Source: Myxococcota bacterium (GTDB taxonomy: Bacteria > Myxococcota_A > SURF-8). From it: a stretch of 64,000 bases of DNA. Position numbers and translations under genes: made by a program. The stretch lies in assembly GCA_965140415.1 (NCBI GenBank), contig OZ223209.1, forward strand, positions 2,752,001 through 2,816,000, in the 5' to 3' direction. Below the pieces are notes generated by a model that was not told where the DNA came from, did not search any database, and saw only the letters and a list, made by a program, of their open reading frames with translations. Shown here one piece after another: positions 37,999 through 47,480 of the stretch; position 1 is the stretch's first letter, and each line of letters starts with the position of its first letter.

Positions 37999-38688
37999 TT
38001 ATTTCAACACTTTGTTAAGTTCCAAACTGTAGAGATATTCAACGCCGTCCTTGGTGCGCCGGGGACCGATTTCAAAACGGCCTAAAACCGTCATGTTCAA
38101 TACGCTGCGATACAGTCGTTCTCGGTCCACTCGCAGTGGATCTCCTTTAACTGTCACATAAACCAGATCCGCCATCGTCGGAGGATTACAGAATACGCAG
38201 CCGGCCATCACGACAGCGGGATTTGCGATCCAGAAACGAGACAATTCTCCATCTTTCCCAGGTGTATCGATGGGCATCACCGCTCCTGAAATCGAGACGG
38301 CTCCTCCATGGACACGCGGGAGACCTTTTTCAAAGAATTTTTTATTGATTTTATAGAACATGTAGTTCTGTTTCAGATTGCGAAAGGTAAGGGGGAACGG
38401 CTTTTGCCAGTTCGGCGTAACCTTTTCCAAGGAAACCGCAGGCATGTTTTCGAAATGACCTTTGGCTCGCAACGTTGCATTCGTGCCGTGTTGTTGGACT
38501 CGTTTCTGCATCATTTCCGGGGGCGGCTCGACCGGAGCTTCATTTTGTGTAACTAAAATAGTAACGAGGTGGGAACATGTCGATGTCATTGTCTGGCAAA
38601 ACGCATTGTTGTTAAAAGCAACTGCCAGTAAGCCCACCATTGCAATCATGCCTATTTGCACTGTTTTCGACCGTTTAAAAATCACCAC
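37999..38688 (-). CDS. Exported hypothetical protein (DUF3299-like)
   Basis: Signal peptide; V.ISGAVMP..GCVFCNPP. Confidence 0.5.
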   Translation of the reverse strand: MVIFKRSKTVQIGMIAMVGLLAVAFNNNAFCQTMTSTCSHLVTILVTQNEAPVEPPPEMMQKRVQQHGTNATLRAKGHFENMPAVSLEKVTPNWQKPFPLTFRNLKQNYMFYKINKKFFEKGLPRVHGGAVSISGAVMPIDTPGKDGELSRFWIANPAVVMAGCVFCNPPTMADLVYVTVKGDPLRVDRERLYRSVLNMTVLGRFEIGPRRTKDGVEYLYSLELNKVLK

Positions 38689-38881: not shown

Positions 38882-40357
38882 ATGGATGCGCCATTGACTT
38901 TGTCGCCAAAACTCTCTTATCAACTTTACGATTCCTGTTGCGTTGCTTTACTGCATGGAACGGGGCTTGTTTTGCGTTTGAATCGAGCCGCTGGGGAATG
39001 GTTCCGAGCGTTGGATCGAGGCGAAAAGACTGCCGCTCAACTCGATTCGAAATTCTCTAACTCATTGCAGAAACTTGGGATTCTTGTCAGTTCGAAGGAA
39101 AGTAAACAGGCGCATTCAGAAGCAGCAACAAAAATGCCTTCTGCTGGCCAGGCACAGGTGCTGGAACAGTTGACGATCGATGCTTGCAAGCTGCGTATTC
39201 CCATTCATGCTCAGCTCGAATTGACGTATCGTTGCCCATTGAAATGCGGGCATTGTTATTTGCGATCGGAGAAGCCGGACAAAGGGAGTGAGTTATCGAC
39301 GCGGCAAATATTTGACTTTCTGGATCAATGGGCGGAGCTTGGCGGTCTGTTTCTACTTTTAACAGGCGGGGAGGTGTTTTTACGTAACGATTTTAAGGAG
39401 ATTTTTACTCATGCACGTCGTCGCCGATTGGCCGTATCGTTATTGACAACGGGTTATGGACAATCGGAGAGCGACTGGTTGCAATTGATTGAACAGGGCC
39501 TGGATCAGGTGCAAATCTCGTTGTATGGCCCGGATGCAGGGACTCACGATGCATTTACGGGTGTTGCGGGATCGTTTGACTATGCCTGGAATGCCTTGGT
39601 GTTACTTAAGCGCTATGGCGTGCAGGTTCGGGCCGCGATTAGTGTGAACCAGAGTAATTTTGCGCTTGTGCAAGCTTTGACAAATCGTTTGGAAGACGAG
39701 GGGATACGCTTTAATTTCAACACGGATATGCTGCCCTTGCGCGATGGTCAACGCGTTTCTGCTGTCGTGCCTTTAGAAAACGATCAATTTGAGACGTTAG
39801 TTCGAATGTATCCCGACCATTGGACGCATGGACATATGACGGGTAAAGCGATGGGGGATCCTCCTTGCAATGCCGCCAGAGCGATGCTGGCGCTAGATCC
39901 ATACGGCAGACTTTCTCCTTGCCTGATGTGGCGTGAGTTTGCAGGTTCGATTGTGGATAATGAGAATTGTGAATTACCTGATAATATTGCTGTTGATAAC
40001 ATGGATAGTGTTGTTGATAACTTGTCTAATATACCGAAAATAAATGATAATACTGAAATTGATATTGTGAATAACTCTGTGGATAACTTTGTGGATAAGT
40101 CTGTTGAAAAGCTTGTTGATAACCCTGTGAATAACTCCTTGGCTCAGCTTTGGAATACGTCGGAAGTGTTTCTTTCCGCTGCGAATTTGTCGATGAAAGA
40201 TTTAGATGATTGTGCATCTTGTGAGCAGCGAGAAGTCTGCCGCAGATGTACTGGTCTGAATATGCAACGCGGTTTCTCAAAGAAAGAGCATTCTTTGGTT
40301 GACTGTTGGCAAACCAATGTGATATACAATATTCAGACTATGAAAGAGGAGAAGTAG
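38882..40357 (+). CDS. Radical SAM/SPASM maturase (PqqE/MftC-like) with a possible N-terminal RRE and an Asn/Asp-rich insertion
   Basis: CPLKCGHC, LTGGE, QISLYG; SPASM CNAA..DPYG.LSPC and CASC..VCRRC..C. Confidence 0.9.
   Translation: MDAPLTLSPKLSYQLYDSCCVALLHGTGLVLRLNRAAGEWFRALDRGEKTAAQLDSKFSNSLQKLGILVSSKESKQAHSEAATKMPSAGQAQVLEQLTIDACKLRIPIHAQLELTYRCPLKCGHCYLRSEKPDKGSELSTRQIFDFLDQWAELGGLFLLLTGGEVFLRNDFKEIFTHARRRRLAVSLLTTGYGQSESDWLQLIEQGLDQVQISLYGPDAGTHDAFTGVAGSFDYAWNALVLLKRYGVQVRAAISVNQSNFALVQALTNRLEDEGIRFNFNTDMLPLRDGQRVSAVVPLENDQFETLVRMYPDHWTHGHMTGKAMGDPPCNAARAMLALDPYGRLSPCLMWREFAGSIVDNENCELPDNIAVDNMDSVVDNLSNIPKINDNTEIDIVNNSVDNFVDKSVEKLVDNPVNNSLAQLWNTSEVFLSAANLSMKDLDDCASCEQREVCRRCTGLNMQRGFSKKEHSLVDCWQTNVIYNIQTMKEEK
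39952..40134. repeat. Cluster of about ten co-oriented DnaA-box-like 9-mers inside the radical SAM CDS
   Basis: TGTGGATAA at 39952, 40078, 40090; TGTGAATAA at 40066, 40126; TGTTGATAA at 39991, 40012, 40114; TGTTGAAAA at 40102; TGTGAATTA at 39968. Confidence 0.8.
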
Positions 40358-40360
40358 GTT

Positions 40361-40453
40361 ATGGAAAACCCGACTATCGAAATCGTTGAAGATCTGGAAG
40401 TAACCGACACTGCGGACGATTGTCAATACTGCGCTGGTCGTTCGATCTGCTGA
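40361..40453 (+). CDS. Candidate RiPP precursor peptide MENPTIEIVEDLEVTDTADDCQYCAGRSIC (30 aa)
   Basis: Translated by hand; ATG 3 nt after the rSAM stop codon, AGGAG upstream; acidic leader and a 3-Cys C-terminal core. Confidence 0.75.
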   Translation: MENPTIEIVEDLEVTDTADDCQYCAGRSIC

Positions 40454-40477
40454 TCAGCTTCCAATAATTCCGCTACA

Positions 40478-41488
40478 TTACATTGCTTGATCCGACTGGA
40501 CCTGCACATTGGGAAGTCGTTTATGTAGATTTTCGATTTCTTCCTGTGTTACCTTGGTTTCTGTCACAATCAACGTCTTCAGCATTTTCATGTCATAAAG
40601 CGGGGCAAGGGAAACCACCGGAGTTTTGGCAAGATCCAGATACTCCAGTTCTTTCATGTGGTTGAGCAAGGATAAATCCGTAATCGGAACTCCCCACAGT
40701 TTTAACATCTTCAGTTTCGTAAATGGTTTGAGCATATTCAAGTCCCGCAACGGAGTGTTGCAGAGATCCAGATAGGTAATTCGTTCTGCTATCGGAAACA
40801 ACGGGGACAGATCCGTAATCTGGGTGCTGCAAGTCAATATCTCCGTGATGTTGGGCATTTGAGCTAAAATACTGATGTCTGTAACCGGGCATTGCAGCAG
40901 GTCGATGCGCTTCAACTGTTTCATTTTCAGTAATGGCGTAAGATCTGAAATGTGTGCCATTTTAGCATCTATTTCCGTCAACTTGGATAGACCTATCAAT
41001 GGTGTCAGGTCATGAACGCCAGTCCCCCAGATGTTCAAATACTCCAGGTTTTCCAATGTTGAAAGTGGTGTTAAATCCGTTACGTCCGGAGAGATGCGCA
41101 TGTCGAGGCGGCGTAGGTTTGTCAAACCGGAAAAGAGCGACAAATCTTTCAATCCTGCAAAACCGACAAACATGGAGGTTAACTCCGTGCAGGTTGGAAT
41201 GATCGAAAGATCGGCTTGCTTCATTCTGCCAGAAATCGATTCAAACCAGATCTGCCCCTGATCGGGATGCGCCATCCACCAGTCGTACCAATATTCATCT
41301 CCCCAAGGCGGAACGAAAGCCGCACAGCCGGTTGCTTCTTCTTGCTGCACAGGAATGGCTTCGATATCTACTGGCACCTCTTGAACATTTTGATCTTTTT
41401 GGTGTGCCGTGCTGGATGTTGTGGGGGAACAGGCGCTGAAAAAGAAAACGATCGATAGGAACATCAACAGAGAAAATCGATTCATCAT
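40478..41488 (-). CDS. Internalin-like leucine-rich-repeat lipoprotein
   Basis: Lipobox FSAC; 22-aa repeats L..L.L..T.V.DL.PL. Confidence 0.88.
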   Translation of the reverse strand: MMNRFSLLMFLSIVFFFSACSPTTSSTAHQKDQNVQEVPVDIEAIPVQQEEATGCAAFVPPWGDEYWYDWWMAHPDQGQIWFESISGRMKQADLSIIPTCTELTSMFVGFAGLKDLSLFSGLTNLRRLDMRISPDVTDLTPLSTLENLEYLNIWGTGVHDLTPLIGLSKLTEIDAKMAHISDLTPLLKMKQLKRIDLLQCPVTDISILAQMPNITEILTCSTQITDLSPLFPIAERITYLDLCNTPLRDLNMLKPFTKLKMLKLWGVPITDLSLLNHMKELEYLDLAKTPVVSLAPLYDMKMLKTLIVTETKVTQEEIENLHKRLPNVQVQSDQAM

Positions 41489-41660
41489 AACCCCATTTCT
41501 AGGCACGTATTAAATGAAACCTTCGCTGCCAAGCGGAAGTCATCATAACGGAGAAAGACCGAGAGGAAAAGCGCTTTTTTAAATTTTGATGAGCAACAGT
41601 AATGCTGTTTTTTTACAGGCTTAGTTTCGGACGAGAAGATGCAGGTCTGGTGATATGCGA

Positions 41661-42756: not shown

Positions 42757-45015
42757 TCACAAATGCCAACGTTTTCCCGGGCCGATTGGAATGCCTTCCG
42801 GTCCGATGGGGTGGACTTTTCCCTGGTCCATATAGCCTAGGTCTACAAGGGGTTGAACCTGCTGGGAAAGTCCTTGCGGAATTCTGCGCAACGTAAGGTA
42901 ATCAAGCCCGATACCGAAATCTTTCGATTCTATCGCCTTGCCGACAACCTTCAACGCGATCCTAACCGGGCCGGTTTTCAGATGCAAGGATTGTTGCGAG
43001 CGCCACGGAACAAAACGGTAATCCGGTTGATAACCGGAAAAGATCGGCGTCAATGGCTTGTCATCAACCGATAGCTGAAAATCAGCTAAAAACGGTCCCT
43101 GCATACAGGACAGCTCAACAAGGTAGTCTCCCGGCTGGAAGATGTATTGCTCGAAGGAAATCGTGGAACCGATTCCTTTTGCTTTGAAATACACCTGTGC
43201 GGCGTCGGGATTGTCCGGGAAATAGCGGGTGGTGCGAAGGATCGTCATGGTCCCGTTGGTAAACCGCATCCCGGCGAGTTTTTCCTCGATCTCATTAAAA
43301 AGAACGCCGTTATCGGTATTGGTCTTTAGTTTTATCAAGCGGTGTTGGTAGGGAGCATAACGATAGAAGTCCCGGTTTGGATAAAGGTACATCAATTCCG
43401 CGCTGCCTTCATACAAATGCCGGGCGAAAATTACATCCTGATCGAAATCCGGTTCGTTGAAGTTGAAACCGTACATATAACTGACGGTGGAACCGGGAAT
43501 CAACACTACGGCGTTGTGGATTTCTTCCTGTTGTACCAACCGATGCAGGCTGTCGTCGACTTCCCGAAAATGCTTGTAATTGTCCCATAATTGCGGATTA
43601 AGCCAGAATAGTCCAAAAAGAAACAGGGTCAGTCCCAATGAAATGGGCAAGGCAAGCAGCAGGCGTTGAATCGCTGGAAATCGCCGACTAAGTAGCTGCA
43701 TCCAATCCATCAGGCGAGACAGGCCAAGCGCGATCAGAAAAACCATGGCTCCGATCCCTTCGAAATAGAAGCGCGGGCCATAGCAGTTGCCATGATAATA
43801 GAAAAAGAAATATCCGATGATCAGGGAAAGCAACAGCGCCACAAGTGCGGCGGTTTCCTTTCGAATTCGGCCTGCGGCACATGGTAGTACGAGCAGCAAT
43901 AGCGCCATTGGCGTTCCGAACAAGTTCAATGAAAGGCTGGTCAGTCGTTGGCTTGTAACTTTTACTGCATCTTCAGGATAAAAGCCGTTAGGGAAACCAA
44001 ATTGGCCATGCTCGTTTTTACAGCCGACATCCTCTCCGAAACCGAGGCGATGGCAAGTTGGCTGCTCTTCCGTCAGAGCGAAATATTCATCCTGGGCAAA
44101 GCGAAAAACATTGCCGGTCAGATTATGGTTGACCATCAACTGGATGGAACCGATTCCAAGCGCCAACGCCATGGCAGGCAGCATTGCAACCAATTGCCTT
44201 GGGCGCTTGATAAGCATTGGCAACAGAACGACGGCCAAAGGTAAAAGTAGCAAAATGCTGTTGTAGGCGCGAATGTTGAATAGCGCTCCAATCAGTCCGC
44301 CAATCAACAGGATGCGAAATCGGCGTTTGTCTTGGCTGTAAAGCAGGGCCTGATCGAGTGCGATCAAGGATAGCAGCCCGCTTAAGGCATGCGCCATGAA
44401 CGAGGCGGACATGAAAATATAGAAGGGGGAAACCAATAACAACAACACCGCAAGGCGTGCCAGATAAGGACCGAAACCTCTGTCTATGATGCGATAGAGT
44501 GGCCAGATCGAAAGTGCAGCTAGGACCGGGTTCACCAGCCAGGGAACATGCAACTTGACGCCTAAAGCCAGAACAAGCGGCCAGCCCGGTTGAAACAGGC
44601 TGATCATGCGTCCTTGATCCACATAATAGAAATGTGGAAGGAAAAAATCCGGTACGGGAGGTGCAGGAATCGTCAACCAACCCCGTGCAAGGGCTTTGGC
44701 CTGGAAAAGATAAGAGGACGAATCGGTTACGTGCGGAATGCTGTCCAGCACGACGATATTTGCGGTGACGGTCACCAATAGTGCAGTAACTATCGTTAAA
44801 AGCAGAAACAGGGAATCCGGAATCTTGTCGCTTATTTTGCGAAAGAGCTCCAATAACTGCGGTCCGGCAATAACTGTCAACAGCAGCAACACACCGAAGA
44901 TGATTTGTGGGATGGGCTGGAAGGTGGTCAGAATGCGCATCGGGTCGAATGACGTCACCAAAAGAAACAGCAGGATCGTCAGTGCGATTCGAACTCCTGT
45001 CGTTAAGACCCGCAT
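42757..45015 (-). CDS. GT-C (ArnT/PMT-like) membrane glycosyltransferase with a C-terminal carbohydrate-binding-like domain
   Basis: PHVTDSSSYLFQA, PGWPLVLA and GPRFYFE motifs; many TM helices; start trimmed to MRVLTTG. Confidence 0.7.
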   Translation of the reverse strand: MRVLTTGVRIALTILLFLLVTSFDPMRILTTFQPIPQIIFGVLLLLTVIAGPQLLELFRKISDKIPDSLFLLLTIVTALLVTVTANIVVLDSIPHVTDSSSYLFQAKALARGWLTIPAPPVPDFFLPHFYYVDQGRMISLFQPGWPLVLALGVKLHVPWLVNPVLAALSIWPLYRIIDRGFGPYLARLAVLLLLVSPFYIFMSASFMAHALSGLLSLIALDQALLYSQDKRRFRILLIGGLIGALFNIRAYNSILLLLPLAVVLLPMLIKRPRQLVAMLPAMALALGIGSIQLMVNHNLTGNVFRFAQDEYFALTEEQPTCHRLGFGEDVGCKNEHGQFGFPNGFYPEDAVKVTSQRLTSLSLNLFGTPMALLLLVLPCAAGRIRKETAALVALLLSLIIGYFFFYYHGNCYGPRFYFEGIGAMVFLIALGLSRLMDWMQLLSRRFPAIQRLLLALPISLGLTLFLFGLFWLNPQLWDNYKHFREVDDSLHRLVQQEEIHNAVVLIPGSTVSYMYGFNFNEPDFDQDVIFARHLYEGSAELMYLYPNRDFYRYAPYQHRLIKLKTNTDNGVLFNEIEEKLAGMRFTNGTMTILRTTRYFPDNPDAAQVYFKAKGIGSTISFEQYIFQPGDYLVELSCMQGPFLADFQLSVDDKPLTPIFSGYQPDYRFVPWRSQQSLHLKTGPVRIALKVVGKAIESKDFGIGLDYLTLRRIPQGLSQQVQPLVDLGYMDQGKVHPIGPEGIPIGPGKRWHL

Positions 45016-45020
45016 GAGTG

Positions 45021-47480
45021 TCAATCCGTTAGAGCCTGCCGGTTGAAACGGAAAACCAGCACGGCAATCAGGTAGCATCCTGCGCCCACAACACCGGTGA
45101 TCATGATTCCTACACCGATGGAAAGAATCATGGCGAAGACTGAACCGATGACCGAAAGCGCGCCGTTGATGGCCCATAACCAGGGTGTGGCGCGCGGAAC
45201 TTCACGGTCGGCTGCGGTCAATCCGATTGGAAACGCACAGCCCATCAAGATACCGATGGCAAACAGCATGATGGTTGCCAGCGCGATGCGTGGCGCCAGC
45301 TGCACTCCGTGGAATGCCTGTAACAGATGCGGCAGCAGTACCGTCAGTGCGAGTGTTCCCAAAAAGAGCAGCCAGAGCGCGATTCCGGCGCGTTTCTGCA
45401 TGTTTGCTCGACCCAACACAAAACGTCCAGCTAGCGAACTTCCGATGCCGGTGGCCAGAAGAATCGAGAACAATACAACTGTCAATGAATATACCGGGTG
45501 TCCAAGGAAGAGCGTCAGGCGTTGGATCAAGCTGATTTCCACCAGGATAAAGCCCAATCCGATGGCGGCGAAGTAGACTCCGTGACGCCCCAACGGCTTC
45601 AAAGGCAGAGGTGCAACGCCTTTGGCGCGTTGGGCGCGTTCATGCAGCCACAGAGGAATGAAAAGCCCGGCAATGGACATGAGTACGACCAACACGAACA
45701 ACACCACGAGAATGGTGATCGCCCGGACGTTGAAGTTCGTCATCCACTGATCTTGAATGTCTACACGCAGAAAGTCCCGCAGTCGAAGCATGTTGAAGAA
45801 AAACGGGGCATCGTCGGTAGTAGGACTGATATTCAGAGAATAGCCCGCAATTGCCTGTTCATGAGTCTTGGGTGACAGAACCTCCGCGAAAATCGGCATA
45901 CTGGTTTCGTCGGGAGTTAATAGCAGTGTAAAGTCCATGTTTTTACACAGATCTTTGAAGGTCGTCACATCTTGAGGGCTGAAGGGTTTGGCCGAAATGA
46001 TGATCGTTCCCACTCCGGTCGGGCTTTCTGCTGTATCGCCGTGATCGGTGGTGGCGATCAGCACATGCTGCCGGGGATCTTTGGCACCGAGGTTTCGTAG
46101 TGCCTCATAAGCCAACGTCGTGCAGCGAATCATCTCACCGGGGCGACTGCGTACCCACCAGCGCGACATTGTTAAAACTCCACGATCTGTCAGGTGAGAG
46201 AGAAATTCGGTCCAGGCTTCGACCGTATACAGACTGTTCTCGGTCAGGACAAAAGCACCGGCGCTGGTTGCGGCCCAGGAGTCGATCAGCGAAGCCTGAA
46301 TGATATCGAACTTTTCATTGCTGCGTTCGATCCAGGAGCGGGCTTCGTCGTTGACGAAGCGCAGTTTCGGGTTTTGCGCCAGATTGCCGGTAAAGGAGGC
46401 CATGTCCTTTGTGATCAGATCCAGAATGTCGTGATTGATTTCGACTCCGGTCACTTTCTTCGGGTTGTACAGCAGCGAAGTCAGCACGTCGCGACCACCG
46501 CCGGTGCCGATAATCAACACATTCGATTCCGGGCGCAAGTGATGCGCCAGGGACGTGACATCGTAGCGCAAGTGCCGGATTTCGTCCGCGTGGCCACTGT
46601 ATTTTGTAATCACCGTTCCCGCAGCGGCATCGATGCTGAGCATCAACTGCTGAGGCTCTTTTTCCGCTTTGTAGGTCGGCGACATGCCCCAACCGAAGGC
46701 AAAAGGGAGCAGATCGCGAAAGACCGTCACCACCGAATGGCTGTTCCAGCGCTCGACAAGCGGTTCCGACGGCACACGGCTGGCCACCGGAAGACCCACC
46801 ACGTTTTTTACCCATTTAATCTCAAACAATCGCACGCTTGGTTGAATCAAAGCCGCCAAGACAAGCAATGCACTTAGCACAGCGGTGCTGCGTTTGAGAA
46901 GCCGCGATTGACTGCCAAGGGAAAACATCCACGCGCCGATTGCCGCCAGTGAAGCTCCGGCAAAGACCATGCCCGGTCCCGTCAACGGACGTGTGAGCGC
47001 CCACATTAACAGACATCCGATAGATGCTCCTGCCAGATCGAAGGCGTATAACTTGCCGATTTGTTTGGGGAAACGTGTAAGAACCAGACTGACCAGAATG
47101 CCTGAGAGCGTAAAGGGAATGGTGATCAGCAGGAAGGTGCTGATAATACTAGCCATTCCTGTTACGGTCAAAGAAGGCAGAAAGGGAATCTGCAAGTGCA
47201 GCCAGAAAGTGATGACAACGGAAACGCAAAACGCCAGTGCAAGGCCAGACAATCGTTCCGAAAGCTTTTCGGTGGGAAACCAATTGGGACGCAAGTAGAC
47301 GATGACCGAACCGAAAGCCATGCCGAACAGGGCAATGCTGATCGTCATAAACGCATAATGATACCACATCGTTACGGAGAAAATGCGCGTGTAGGTAATT
47401 TCCAGTAGCAGCGTGGCGCAGGTAATGAAAGCGAGTCCCAAAGGAAGCAGGCGCGGTATTTTCTGGTTGTCAGTCGGCAT
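45021..47480 (-). CDS. Membrane protein with a central spermidine-synthase-like SAM-binding domain
   Basis: VLIIGTGGGRD, GVEIN, DEARS, FDII and LYTVEA flanked by TM bundles. Confidence 0.85.
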   Translation of the reverse strand: MPTDNQKIPRLLPLGLAFITCATLLLEITYTRIFSVTMWYHYAFMTISIALFGMAFGSVIVYLRPNWFPTEKLSERLSGLALAFCVSVVITFWLHLQIPFLPSLTVTGMASIISTFLLITIPFTLSGILVSLVLTRFPKQIGKLYAFDLAGASIGCLLMWALTRPLTGPGMVFAGASLAAIGAWMFSLGSQSRLLKRSTAVLSALLVLAALIQPSVRLFEIKWVKNVVGLPVASRVPSEPLVERWNSHSVVTVFRDLLPFAFGWGMSPTYKAEKEPQQLMLSIDAAAGTVITKYSGHADEIRHLRYDVTSLAHHLRPESNVLIIGTGGGRDVLTSLLYNPKKVTGVEINHDILDLITKDMASFTGNLAQNPKLRFVNDEARSWIERSNEKFDIIQASLIDSWAATSAGAFVLTENSLYTVEAWTEFLSHLTDRGVLTMSRWWVRSRPGEMIRCTTLAYEALRNLGAKDPRQHVLIATTDHGDTAESPTGVGTIIISAKPFSPQDVTTFKDLCKNMDFTLLLTPDETSMPIFAEVLSPKTHEQAIAGYSLNISPTTDDAPFFFNMLRLRDFLRVDIQDQWMTNFNVRAITILVVLFVLVVLMSIAGLFIPLWLHERAQRAKGVAPLPLKPLGRHGVYFAAIGLGFILVEISLIQRLTLFLGHPVYSLTVVLFSILLATGIGSSLAGRFVLGRANMQKRAGIALWLLFLGTLALTVLLPHLLQAFHGVQLAPRIALATIMLFAIGILMGCAFPIGLTAADREVPRATPWLWAINGALSVIGSVFAMILSIGVGIMITGVVGAGCYLIAVLVFRFNRQALTD

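Follow-up and report, generated by a model that had tools for sequence, protein, structure and literature searches.

A conserved radical SAM/SPASM enzyme and its 30-residue peptide in Myxococcota: a likely undescribed peptide family with a possible role in envelope metal handling

The stretch of DNA analysed here (hereafter, the window) comprises 64,000 nt of a Myxococcota bacterium (GenBank assembly GCA_965140415.1, contig OZ223209.1, positions 2,752,001 to 2,816,000 of the forward strand) and harbors a gene for a radical S-adenosylmethionine (SAM)/SPASM enzyme, directly followed by a gene for a peptide of 30 amino acids. Enzyme and peptide form a fixed pair, the peptide is very likely the substrate of the enzyme, and the pair likely represents a family of modified peptides, possibly binding metals, that has not been described before. 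According to the preferred reading, to which a probability of about 0.5 is assigned, the peptide is likely cross-linked by a thioether and serves the handling of metals in the cell envelope together with a leucine-rich repeat (LRR) lipoprotein, a DUF3299-like protein, and a MacB-type ATP-binding cassette (ABC) transporter of the Zrg/PA4064-65 type; chemistry, export, and metal binding are all predicted features of this reading. The genes and elements concerned are the following:

37999..38688, minus strand: DUF3299 (ZrgE/PA4066)-like protein, hydrophobic over an N-terminal stretch; gene divergent from that of the enzyme
38882..40357, plus strand: radical SAM/SPASM enzyme, a predicted peptide maturase of 491 amino acids (PF04055, E = 5.6e-16)
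39952..40134, minus strand: array of DnaA boxes inside the enzyme gene, with eight boxes at no more than one mismatch, three of them perfect, and six at 12-bp spacing counting one copy with two mismatches
40361..40453, plus strand: 30-aa precursor peptide MENPTIEIVEDLEVTDTADDCQYCAGRSIC
40478..41506, minus strand: LRR lipoprotein (PF12799) with a lipobox-type Cys26 and a Trp-rich cap; gene convergent on that of the peptide
G000:C1:3026130-3028282, in the same genome, 234 kb from the pair: split MacB-type ABC transporter, single orthologue (PF02687 + PF12704 and PF00005)

The analysis of the peptide gene confirmed the proposal of a preliminary description, made from the letters of the DNA alone, that a real precursor-like peptide lies next to the enzyme. 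The open reading frame (ORF) begins 3 nt past the enzyme stop codon and has its own GAGGAG site 9 nt upstream, and the core (DDCQYCAGRSIC-stop) follows the pattern C-x2-C-x5-C-stop, with a recognition-like P-x-I motif located 17 residues ahead of Cys21. The six frames of the 5.98-Mb genome contain 30 CxxCx5C-stop words, and that of the window's peptide is the only one fitting the family motif (P-x-I…[DN]-x-C-x-x-[C/M]-x-G-x-x-x-C-stop); thus, the ORF is not a product of chance. Synonymous codons vary at the invariant residues of the peptide in seven genomes of the window's class, pointing to selection at the protein level, and one contig from a second sample of the same study covers positions 39896-40492 with zero differences. 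A selenocysteine read-through at the TGA codon of the peptide was rejected since its relatives end in TAA or TAG. The scan for promoters and terminators remained at chance level (six sites versus 3.5 ± 1.8, and no terminator). An NCBIfam family was assigned to none of the 15 aligned peptides, and a Pfam family was not found for that of the window.

The conservation of the peptide beside enzyme homologues had been set beforehand as a test of the proposal, and its outcome did not refute it. The peptide gene is located directly downstream of the enzyme gene in 15 of the 17 close-clade loci, at a spacing of 2-88 nt where measured, and the peptide profile recovered all 13 enzyme-bearing genomes at E < 1e-12, the next match among 19 other genomes having E = 0.002. 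In the genome G405, the peptide gene lies on another contig, next to the LRR gene, and retains a sigma70-like promoter; in G003, a second copy of the enzyme gene has no peptide. Among the 172 loci examined, the family motif is restricted to the close clade, and in a tree of 155 enzymes, built with a quick method after dropping identical sequences and all frames that lacked the motif or ran for fewer than 280 aa from it, all 12 motif-bearing rows fall within a single 13-row clade (SH-aLRT, i.e., Shimodaira–Hasegawa-like approximate likelihood ratio test, 98). The locus L085 was left out of the tree, its frame reading CxxxCxxG; this close-clade enzyme (L085:2433-3740), lying beside the most divergent peptide, is possibly decayed or affected by a sequence error.

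A search of 1.84 billion representative sequences with the peptide profile gave 36 matches, two of which (2413 and 2242 aa) are not peptides and were removed before the motif counts, leaving 34 short peptides whose residue counts, these having been found by a profile of the same motif, are biased toward that profile. Every one of the 34 has Asx at position -2, Cys1, and a terminal Cys at +9; the middle Cys (+3) is kept in 31 and replaced by Met in three, belonging to three separate 50% clusters; position +4 is A, V, T, G, or I in 34/34; and position +5 is Gly in 31, with one Asp, one His, and one Asn. The distance from P-x-I to Cys1 is 17 residues in 28 of the 34, and no invariant aromatic residue exists in the core. 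The net charge of the leader ranges from -9 to +11, so that the acidic leader pointed out in the preliminary description holds for the window's peptide and not as a trait of the family. Being conserved, adjacent to the enzyme, and endowed with a leader motif and a core, the peptide has the features of a precursor.

The enzyme ORF starts with the ATG at 38882, with a GGAGG 10 nt upstream, and stops with the TAG at 40357. The protein belongs to the radical SAM/SPASM enzymes, with a CxxxCxxC motif (C118/C122/C125) and a C-terminal SPASM motif of seven cysteines (329, 347, 444, 447, 453, 456, and 475); these three SAM-cluster and seven SPASM cysteines are invariant in 19/19 aligned homologues, there is no eighth conserved one, and PF13186 is listed for 17 of the 20 top matches. 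None of the 25 NCBIfam models listed reaches its cut-off (bits/cut-off: TIGR04053, the best, 93/395; PqqE TIGR02109, 92.5/381; MftC TIGR03962, 80/265; NF045574 (StsB), 72/625; TIGR04403 (SkfB), 62/300), and the best match among the PDB sequences is PqqE. The AlphaFold model (predicted local distance difference test, pLDDT, 82) has its best fold matches mostly among peptide maturases (Z: CteB 24.5, ChlB 23.5, SkfB 23.2, anSME 23.1, SuiB 22.2, PqqE 21.6). In the same model, residues 5-71 form three strands plus helices, i.e., a fused N-terminal domain resembling the recognition element (RRE) of peptides that are made by ribosomes and modified after translation (RiPPs); its match to the lasso-peptide RRE TbiB1 (5v1u; Z 8.4, rmsd 2.1, 66 residues aligned) is middling in Z, but covers most of the domain with concordant secondary structure. 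The RRE that the preliminary description mentions for peptide-modifying SPASM enzymes has a counterpart in the predicted fold; Pfam found no PqqD domain in the protein. Folding the first 76 aa from the single sequence yielded a poor model made of helices only (pLDDT 67), which was not used.

The enzyme clade, whose system is near single copy, was found in 8 of the 10 genomes belonging to the window's class and, for a second class, in 5 of the 401 genomes sampled; of the other 391 genomes sampled from the phylum, none had it at a comparable score. Weaker matches of the LRR lipoprotein and the permease point to a further lineage. In these large searches only 4-5 candidates per genome were scored, and an absence is to be read as "not found in those searched". 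The relatives carrying taxonomic labels are metagenome-assembled genomes (MAGs) of Myxococcota, Myxococcales, or Polyangia. In a set of 32 genomes, the LRR gene is present in 12/13 enzyme-positive and 0/19 enzyme-negative genomes, and both the DUF3299-like gene and the permease gene of the transporter in 12/13 versus 1/19; in the second lineage alone, the partners occur in 5/5 versus 0-1/17. Since these genomes represent two lineages and kin are not independent, neither are these counts, and the p-values were given no weight. Of the 401 genomes of the phylum, seven contain the LRR subfamily, every one of them enzyme-positive, and the link between the partners holds where the genes are scattered (G005, G008, G061, and the window's genome); for five further enzyme matches, the contig has the same length as that of a permease match, which is a hint of linkage only. 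The partners very likely make up one pathway. The pair had been described as minimal, which these counts do not support: the LRR lipoprotein, the MacB-type transporter, and the DUF3299-like gene accompany it almost one-to-one.

The two flanking genes recur beside the enzyme homologues, the orthologues of the LRR lipoprotein being 35-52% identical and those of the DUF3299-like protein 38-49%. The former is predicted to be a periplasmic receptor or partner. The latter has an invariant AGCVFC motif (CxxC); its Atlas top match is DUF3299 at 0.89, to be taken as a lead only, and its alignment gave nothing significant against the PDB sequences. The remark that no exporter is adjacent to the pair is correct inside the window and not for the system as a whole, in which the transporter, located elsewhere in this genome, adjoins the enzyme loci in L205-L208 and L084.

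The transporter has the split MacB-type ATPase and permease of the Zrg/PA4063-66 system. The top 2 of 120 plasmid matches of the permease are full length at about 24% identity, and both, once inspected, proved to lie inside DUF2796(ZrgA)-ATPase-permease-DUF3299 operons, one of which is headed by a Fur-family gene. This arrangement is paralleled by that of G061, where LRR, ATPase, permease, and DUF3299-like genes follow each other on one strand, so that the LRR gene holds the slot of ZrgA; PF10986 (ZrgA/DUF2796) had no match in G000, though the controls were silent too. The permease has a His-rich loop, with 20-42 His, in the six members of the class parsed (the loop was left unparsed in 3 of 13 permeases). 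As for the neighbouring genes, G061 has CobN, a fusion of a periplasmic binding protein with CbiZ, and DUF2149; G406 has MotA/ExbB and DUF2149; and G008 has TonB together with a TonB-dependent receptor. The Zrg operon of Vibrio parahaemolyticus is reported to be induced 76-206-fold in zinc deficiency (PMC9817125), and for PA4063-66 of Pseudomonas aeruginosa, regulation by Zur, a model as a MacB exporter, and a proposed export of pyochelin-cobalt are reported (PMC11481552). A role of the system in metal handling has roughly even odds.

Other genes were observed around the transporter and the enzyme. A single-copy gene for a small Cys/His protein with DUF6788 (G000:C1:3028312-3028641, i.e., L233:9313-9642, minus strand), 58-75% identical among its orthologues, is located directly upstream of the ABC ATPase of the system in the seven of seven members of the class with sequence there and was not seen in the Polyangia-type loci; it is possible that it encodes a metal-sensing regulator. 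Genes of the resistance-nodulation-division (RND) efflux type (AcrB-type plus outer-membrane factor; L200:3528-8043 and L202:3319-7832) lie immediately upstream of the enzyme gene and in its orientation in G006 and G009, and are candidates for the peptide exporter there; in G003, a major facilitator superfamily (MFS) gene is located ahead of the enzyme.

As to the chemistry, the adjacent enzyme would link the 12-residue core at the C-terminus of the peptide into a thioether ring, giving a constrained, sulfur-rich product. The RRE might grip the P-x-I motif about 17 residues from Cys1, the 5'-deoxyadenosyl radical would abstract a hydrogen, and a substrate Cys positioned at the three-Cys auxiliary cluster I would be coupled to the site of abstraction. 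The link preferred would join Cys1 to the C-alpha of the Gly five residues on, a C-x4-G span like the inner ring of StsA, the second choice being a link from Cys to the C-beta of the invariant Asp/Asn. The middle and the terminal Cys might stay as soft-metal ligands, and the exchange of Cys with Met at +3 suggests a ligand role for this sulfur, and not that of an obligate cross-link donor. Finally, the LRR lipoprotein could stand in place of the Zn/Co-binding ZrgA/PA4063 of the known operons and bind the peptide or its metal complex.

A thioether is the probable outcome on the basis of several features. The seven SPASM cysteines leave one auxiliary iron site open, a feature also reported for CteB and SkfB, which form thioethers (PMC8326336). 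The six residues of the enzyme proximal to the catalytic site (Y126/T161/L188/S213/L348/M349, assigned by motif analogy) may be compared with those of StsB (Y/T/I/S/K/L) and CteB (F/F/T/S/H/Q) reported in PMC10288494, and with those of SkfB (Y/T/F/S/Q/L) and PqqE (S/S/I/S/H/A); of these, StsB and SkfB seem nearer to the profile found here than CteB and PqqE do, a likeness that is not highly specific. An aromatic C-C or cyclophane cross-link is disfavoured and a Cys-based one is most likely, because the 34 relatives share no invariant aromatic residue. A further and more tentative step, less likely than not, would make the product a radical-SAM-made, thioether-constrained RiPP metallophore, i.e., a 12-residue ring peptide with thiol/thioether ligands, captured by the LRR lipoprotein in place of ZrgA and handled by the Zrg/PA4064-65-type MacB transporter.

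The same gene set might be explained otherwise. The thioether peptide could be a secreted signal or antibacterial, with the LRR lipoprotein serving it as receptor or as immunity protein and a MacB pump that exports or clears the product, as DarBCD does with darobactin; this is rather unlikely. The darBCD genes are a precedent for a dedicated ABC exporter of a radical SAM RiPP (PMC8442675), the residues between the cysteines and the charge of the leader differ between lineages, and the enzyme gene is preceded by RND efflux genes in G006 and G009 and by an MFS gene in G003. The two plasmid matches of the transporter inspected, on the contrary, belong to Zrg-type operons with DUF3299 alongside, and a system that is near single copy and conserved in 8/10 genomes of the class, with a core nearly constant there, is unlike the fast-varying antagonistic peptides. 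The darABCDE system shares with the present one a radical SAM RiPP, a dedicated ABC exporter, and the lack of a dedicated protease; in the description given in PMC8442675, however, darobactin has Trp-based ether and C-C links, and its cluster a membrane-fusion protein and no LRR or DUF3299 gene, whereas the window's peptide has no invariant aromatic. It is also unlikely, and slightly more so, that the enzyme acts instead, or besides, on the invariant C-terminal Cys, for example by a MftC-like oxidative decarboxylation/desaturation to an enethiol or a heterocycle. That Cys is the last residue in 34/34 relatives would suggest, under this explanation, that its free carboxylate matters, and the full-length scores are near those of the PqqE, AhbD, NirJ, and MftC models, with PqqE as the best PDB sequence match; yet full-length similarity mispredicted StsB as MftC-like (PMC10288494), the proximity residues lean toward the sactisynthases, and an auxiliary site is open.

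A last explanation, quite improbable, sees in the peptide an unmodified or intracellular metal or Fe-S buffer (a mini-metallothionein), the links between the genes reflecting shared regulation or inherited gene order. Metal sites typically show a CxxC plus a terminal Cys and an interchange of Cys and Met, an export signal is missing from the peptide, and G405 keeps the sigma70-like promoter after the separation from the enzyme. The fused RRE-like domain and the fixed distance of P-x-I from Cys1, on the other hand, are hallmarks of leader-guided modification, and the partners co-occur even where unlinked.

The preferred reading, i.e., a thioether peptide serving envelope metal handling, has in turn several points against it, in addition to the kinship of the genomes and the profile-biased sampling of the peptides. 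Y/T/S proximity residues may be common among SPASM enzymes that do not form thioethers, and the Gly(+5) supposed to accept the link is replaced by Asp, His, or Asn in 3/34 relatives. The reading does not account for the cleavage of the peptide or for its crossing of the inner membrane: the peptide lacks a signal sequence, and the neighbourhoods show no recurring protease. The permease is apparently related to the Zrg type at only about 24% identity, and the four Polyangia-type permeases parsed have a loop with 1-3 His and no His-rich one. The DUF3299 model (PF11736) had no match in the window's own protein and remained below cut-off in six of eight DUF3299-like members (best E 0.0054) and in two further homologues (0.002); a crude scan of 15 upstream regions found no shared Fur/Zur-like palindrome. 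Moreover, G003 (86% complete) has enzyme and peptide with no partner match, and G407 has permease and DUF3299-like matches with no enzyme or peptide match.

In order to place the pair among known systems, its features were compared with those of characterized RiPPs. The sactipeptide pairs StsB/StsA and BlaB/BlaA (PMC10288494) likewise have an RRE-dependent SPASM enzyme near MftC/PqqE by full-length score and a short Cys/Gly core; the C-x4-G span corresponds to Cys6-Gly11 of StsA, and three of the six proximity residues (Y, T, S) are identical in StsB. However, their core is CxCxCx4GxGxG, as against [DN]xCxx[CM]xGxxxC-stop here, the score of the enzyme is far from the StsB cut-off, its RRE-like domain is fused, and the partners are the LRR lipoprotein and the Zrg-type transporter. 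The ranthisynthase CteB of SCIFF (5wgg) and the sactisynthase SkfB (6efn) are among the best fold matches and have a fused RRE and a three-Cys auxiliary cluster I, but share only 15-23% identity with the window's enzyme, and the substrate here is a 30-aa peptide with three Cys, not six; only one of the six proximity residues is identical in CteB. The peptide has neither the six-Cys SCIFF core nor a Cys-x3-Asp/Glu motif, the latter being of the PapB and QhpD ranthipeptide type, and the enzyme lacks a CteB-like profile. Mycofactocin differs too, in that MftA needs a C-terminal Val-Tyr (PMC10288494) and this peptide ends in Cys; the MftC cut-off is not reached, nor is that of PqqE (TIGR02109), and no pqq family occurs among the neighbours scanned. 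Neither enzyme nor peptide belongs to the mycofactocin, PQQ, or SCIFF families, in agreement with the preliminary description, according to which the core matches none of their motifs; a redox-cofactor role like that of mycofactocin or PQQ has no support in the neighbourhoods.

With respect to the ZrgABCDE (Vibrio) and PA4063-PA4066 systems, the split ATPase and permease, the DUF3299-like partner, the gene order in G061, and a His-rich segment of metal-binding type are shared, whereas an LRR lipoprotein occupies the position of ZrgA/DUF2796, the His-rich stretch lies within the permease, the DUF3299-like protein carries a CxxC, a radical SAM RiPP pair is coupled to the set, and no Zur box was found in the crude scan. 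Among the nearest relatives by sequence are SPASM enzymes with YxxP-leader Cys-rich peptides (55 of the 155 tree rows), which have the same CxxCx5CxxC SPASM signature and whose YxxP-x-hydrophobic leader the P-x-I motif resembles in reduced form; they form a separate clade (SH-aLRT 98) with a different core, and YEKP-type precursors are classed as "Other Uncharacterized" in the dataset of PMC10288494.

A paper on this peptide/enzyme family was not found in searches that covered supplements and subscription literature only in part, and the family motifs are absent from the precursor spreadsheet of PMC10288494 and from one supplement of PMC12710340. According to a 2023 paper (PMC10206099), methanobactins were the only earlier RiPP chalkophores, and no metal-binding RiPP made by a radical SAM enzyme was found in the literature searched. 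For many families of radical SAM RiPPs no role is known, and the near one-to-one envelope partners point to one here; the substrate is short (30 aa) and easily expressed, with a new core motif whose invariant terminal Cys and Asp/Asn make a new Cys chemistry possible. The system is also a naturally occurring version of the Zrg/PA4063-66 transporter, for which neither cargo nor direction is settled, with the LRR lipoprotein and the peptide appearing to replace the zinc-binding subunit; if the metallophore reading were true, the chemistry of peptide natural products would be joined to a metal-homeostasis machine of debated cargo.

Other SPASM enzymes came to light in the same survey. The sister group (loci L008-L162, e.g., L008, L014, L019, L030, L065, and L071) is large and uncharacterized, with unannotated YxxP-leader peptides located before or after the enzyme and cores of the type GCK...C...C..GS-stop, in Aminicenantes, Nitrospirae, Desulfobacterales, and Chloroflexota. 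Enzymes of the Methanophagales/Methanogaster type, in archaeal MAGs (L021, L026, L029, L031, and L037) and metagenome contigs (L095 and L101), are followed by peptides of about 40 aa ending in QP[FWY]...LC(C/P)P, a candidate archaeal RiPP family. The window's genome also contains a more distant SPASM paralogue (G000:C1:13241-14278), which matches the clade profile at E = 4e-69 and has counterparts in G001, G003, G004, and G005; the roughly 500 nt downstream of it show no obvious Cys-rich peptide.

The DnaA-box array is a lineage-specific passenger of the enzyme gene and not part of the RiPP system. It occupies 183 bp (C1:2.792 Mb), with the boxes on one strand and in one codon phase, and coincides with an in-frame insert of 58 aa (residues 360-417, positions 39959-40132) between the two SPASM halves, having 30% GC versus 48% in the rest of the gene and a predicted disordered structure (pLDDT < 50 at residues 361-416). 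The insert, which the preliminary description does not mention, is extra relative to 17 of the 19 homologues and present in two, P0004 being one of the homologues without it; in P0002 (80% identical), a diverged 58-aa insert occupies the same place with the same VDN/VNN words, which, together with the contig of the second sample spanning the array, led to the rejection of an assembly artefact. Such an array is absent from 16 other loci. It is the densest 300-bp cluster of DnaA boxes in the genome (the next ones have five and four), and at least eight boxes were obtained in 0.2-0.4% of synonymous resamplings with the protein fixed, though a tandem duplication could also homogenise the codons. 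Since dnaA is located at 0.149 Mb, the GC-skew minimum at 0.417 Mb, and the maximum at 3.127 Mb, 335 kb from the array, its identity with oriC was rejected; from its sequence and position, it is likely a non-origin DnaA-binding cluster. E. coli datA is another non-origin cluster of DnaA boxes. The Bacillus subtilis clusters described in PMC2533591 are likewise dense, same-strand, and far from dnaA, but the eight DnaA-bound sites reported there are all intergenic, whereas this one lies in frame inside an Fe-S domain. It would be a clean case of one DNA stretch that encodes a protein loop and likely serves as a replication-control site.

Two further groups of DnaA boxes were observed in G000, nine in two oppositely oriented groups in a 1-kb AT-rich intergenic gap 160 kb past the skew maximum (C1:3286142-3287000) and four intergenic ones near the skew-minimum plateau (C1:230659-230908); no cluster of at least three lies beside dnaA, and oriC may therefore be displaced from that gene. 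Elsewhere in the window (42757-47480), two large tandem membrane proteins, namely, a PMT-like glycosyltransferase (806 aa) and a protein with a spermidine-synthase domain (819 aa), are encoded upstream of rlmN.

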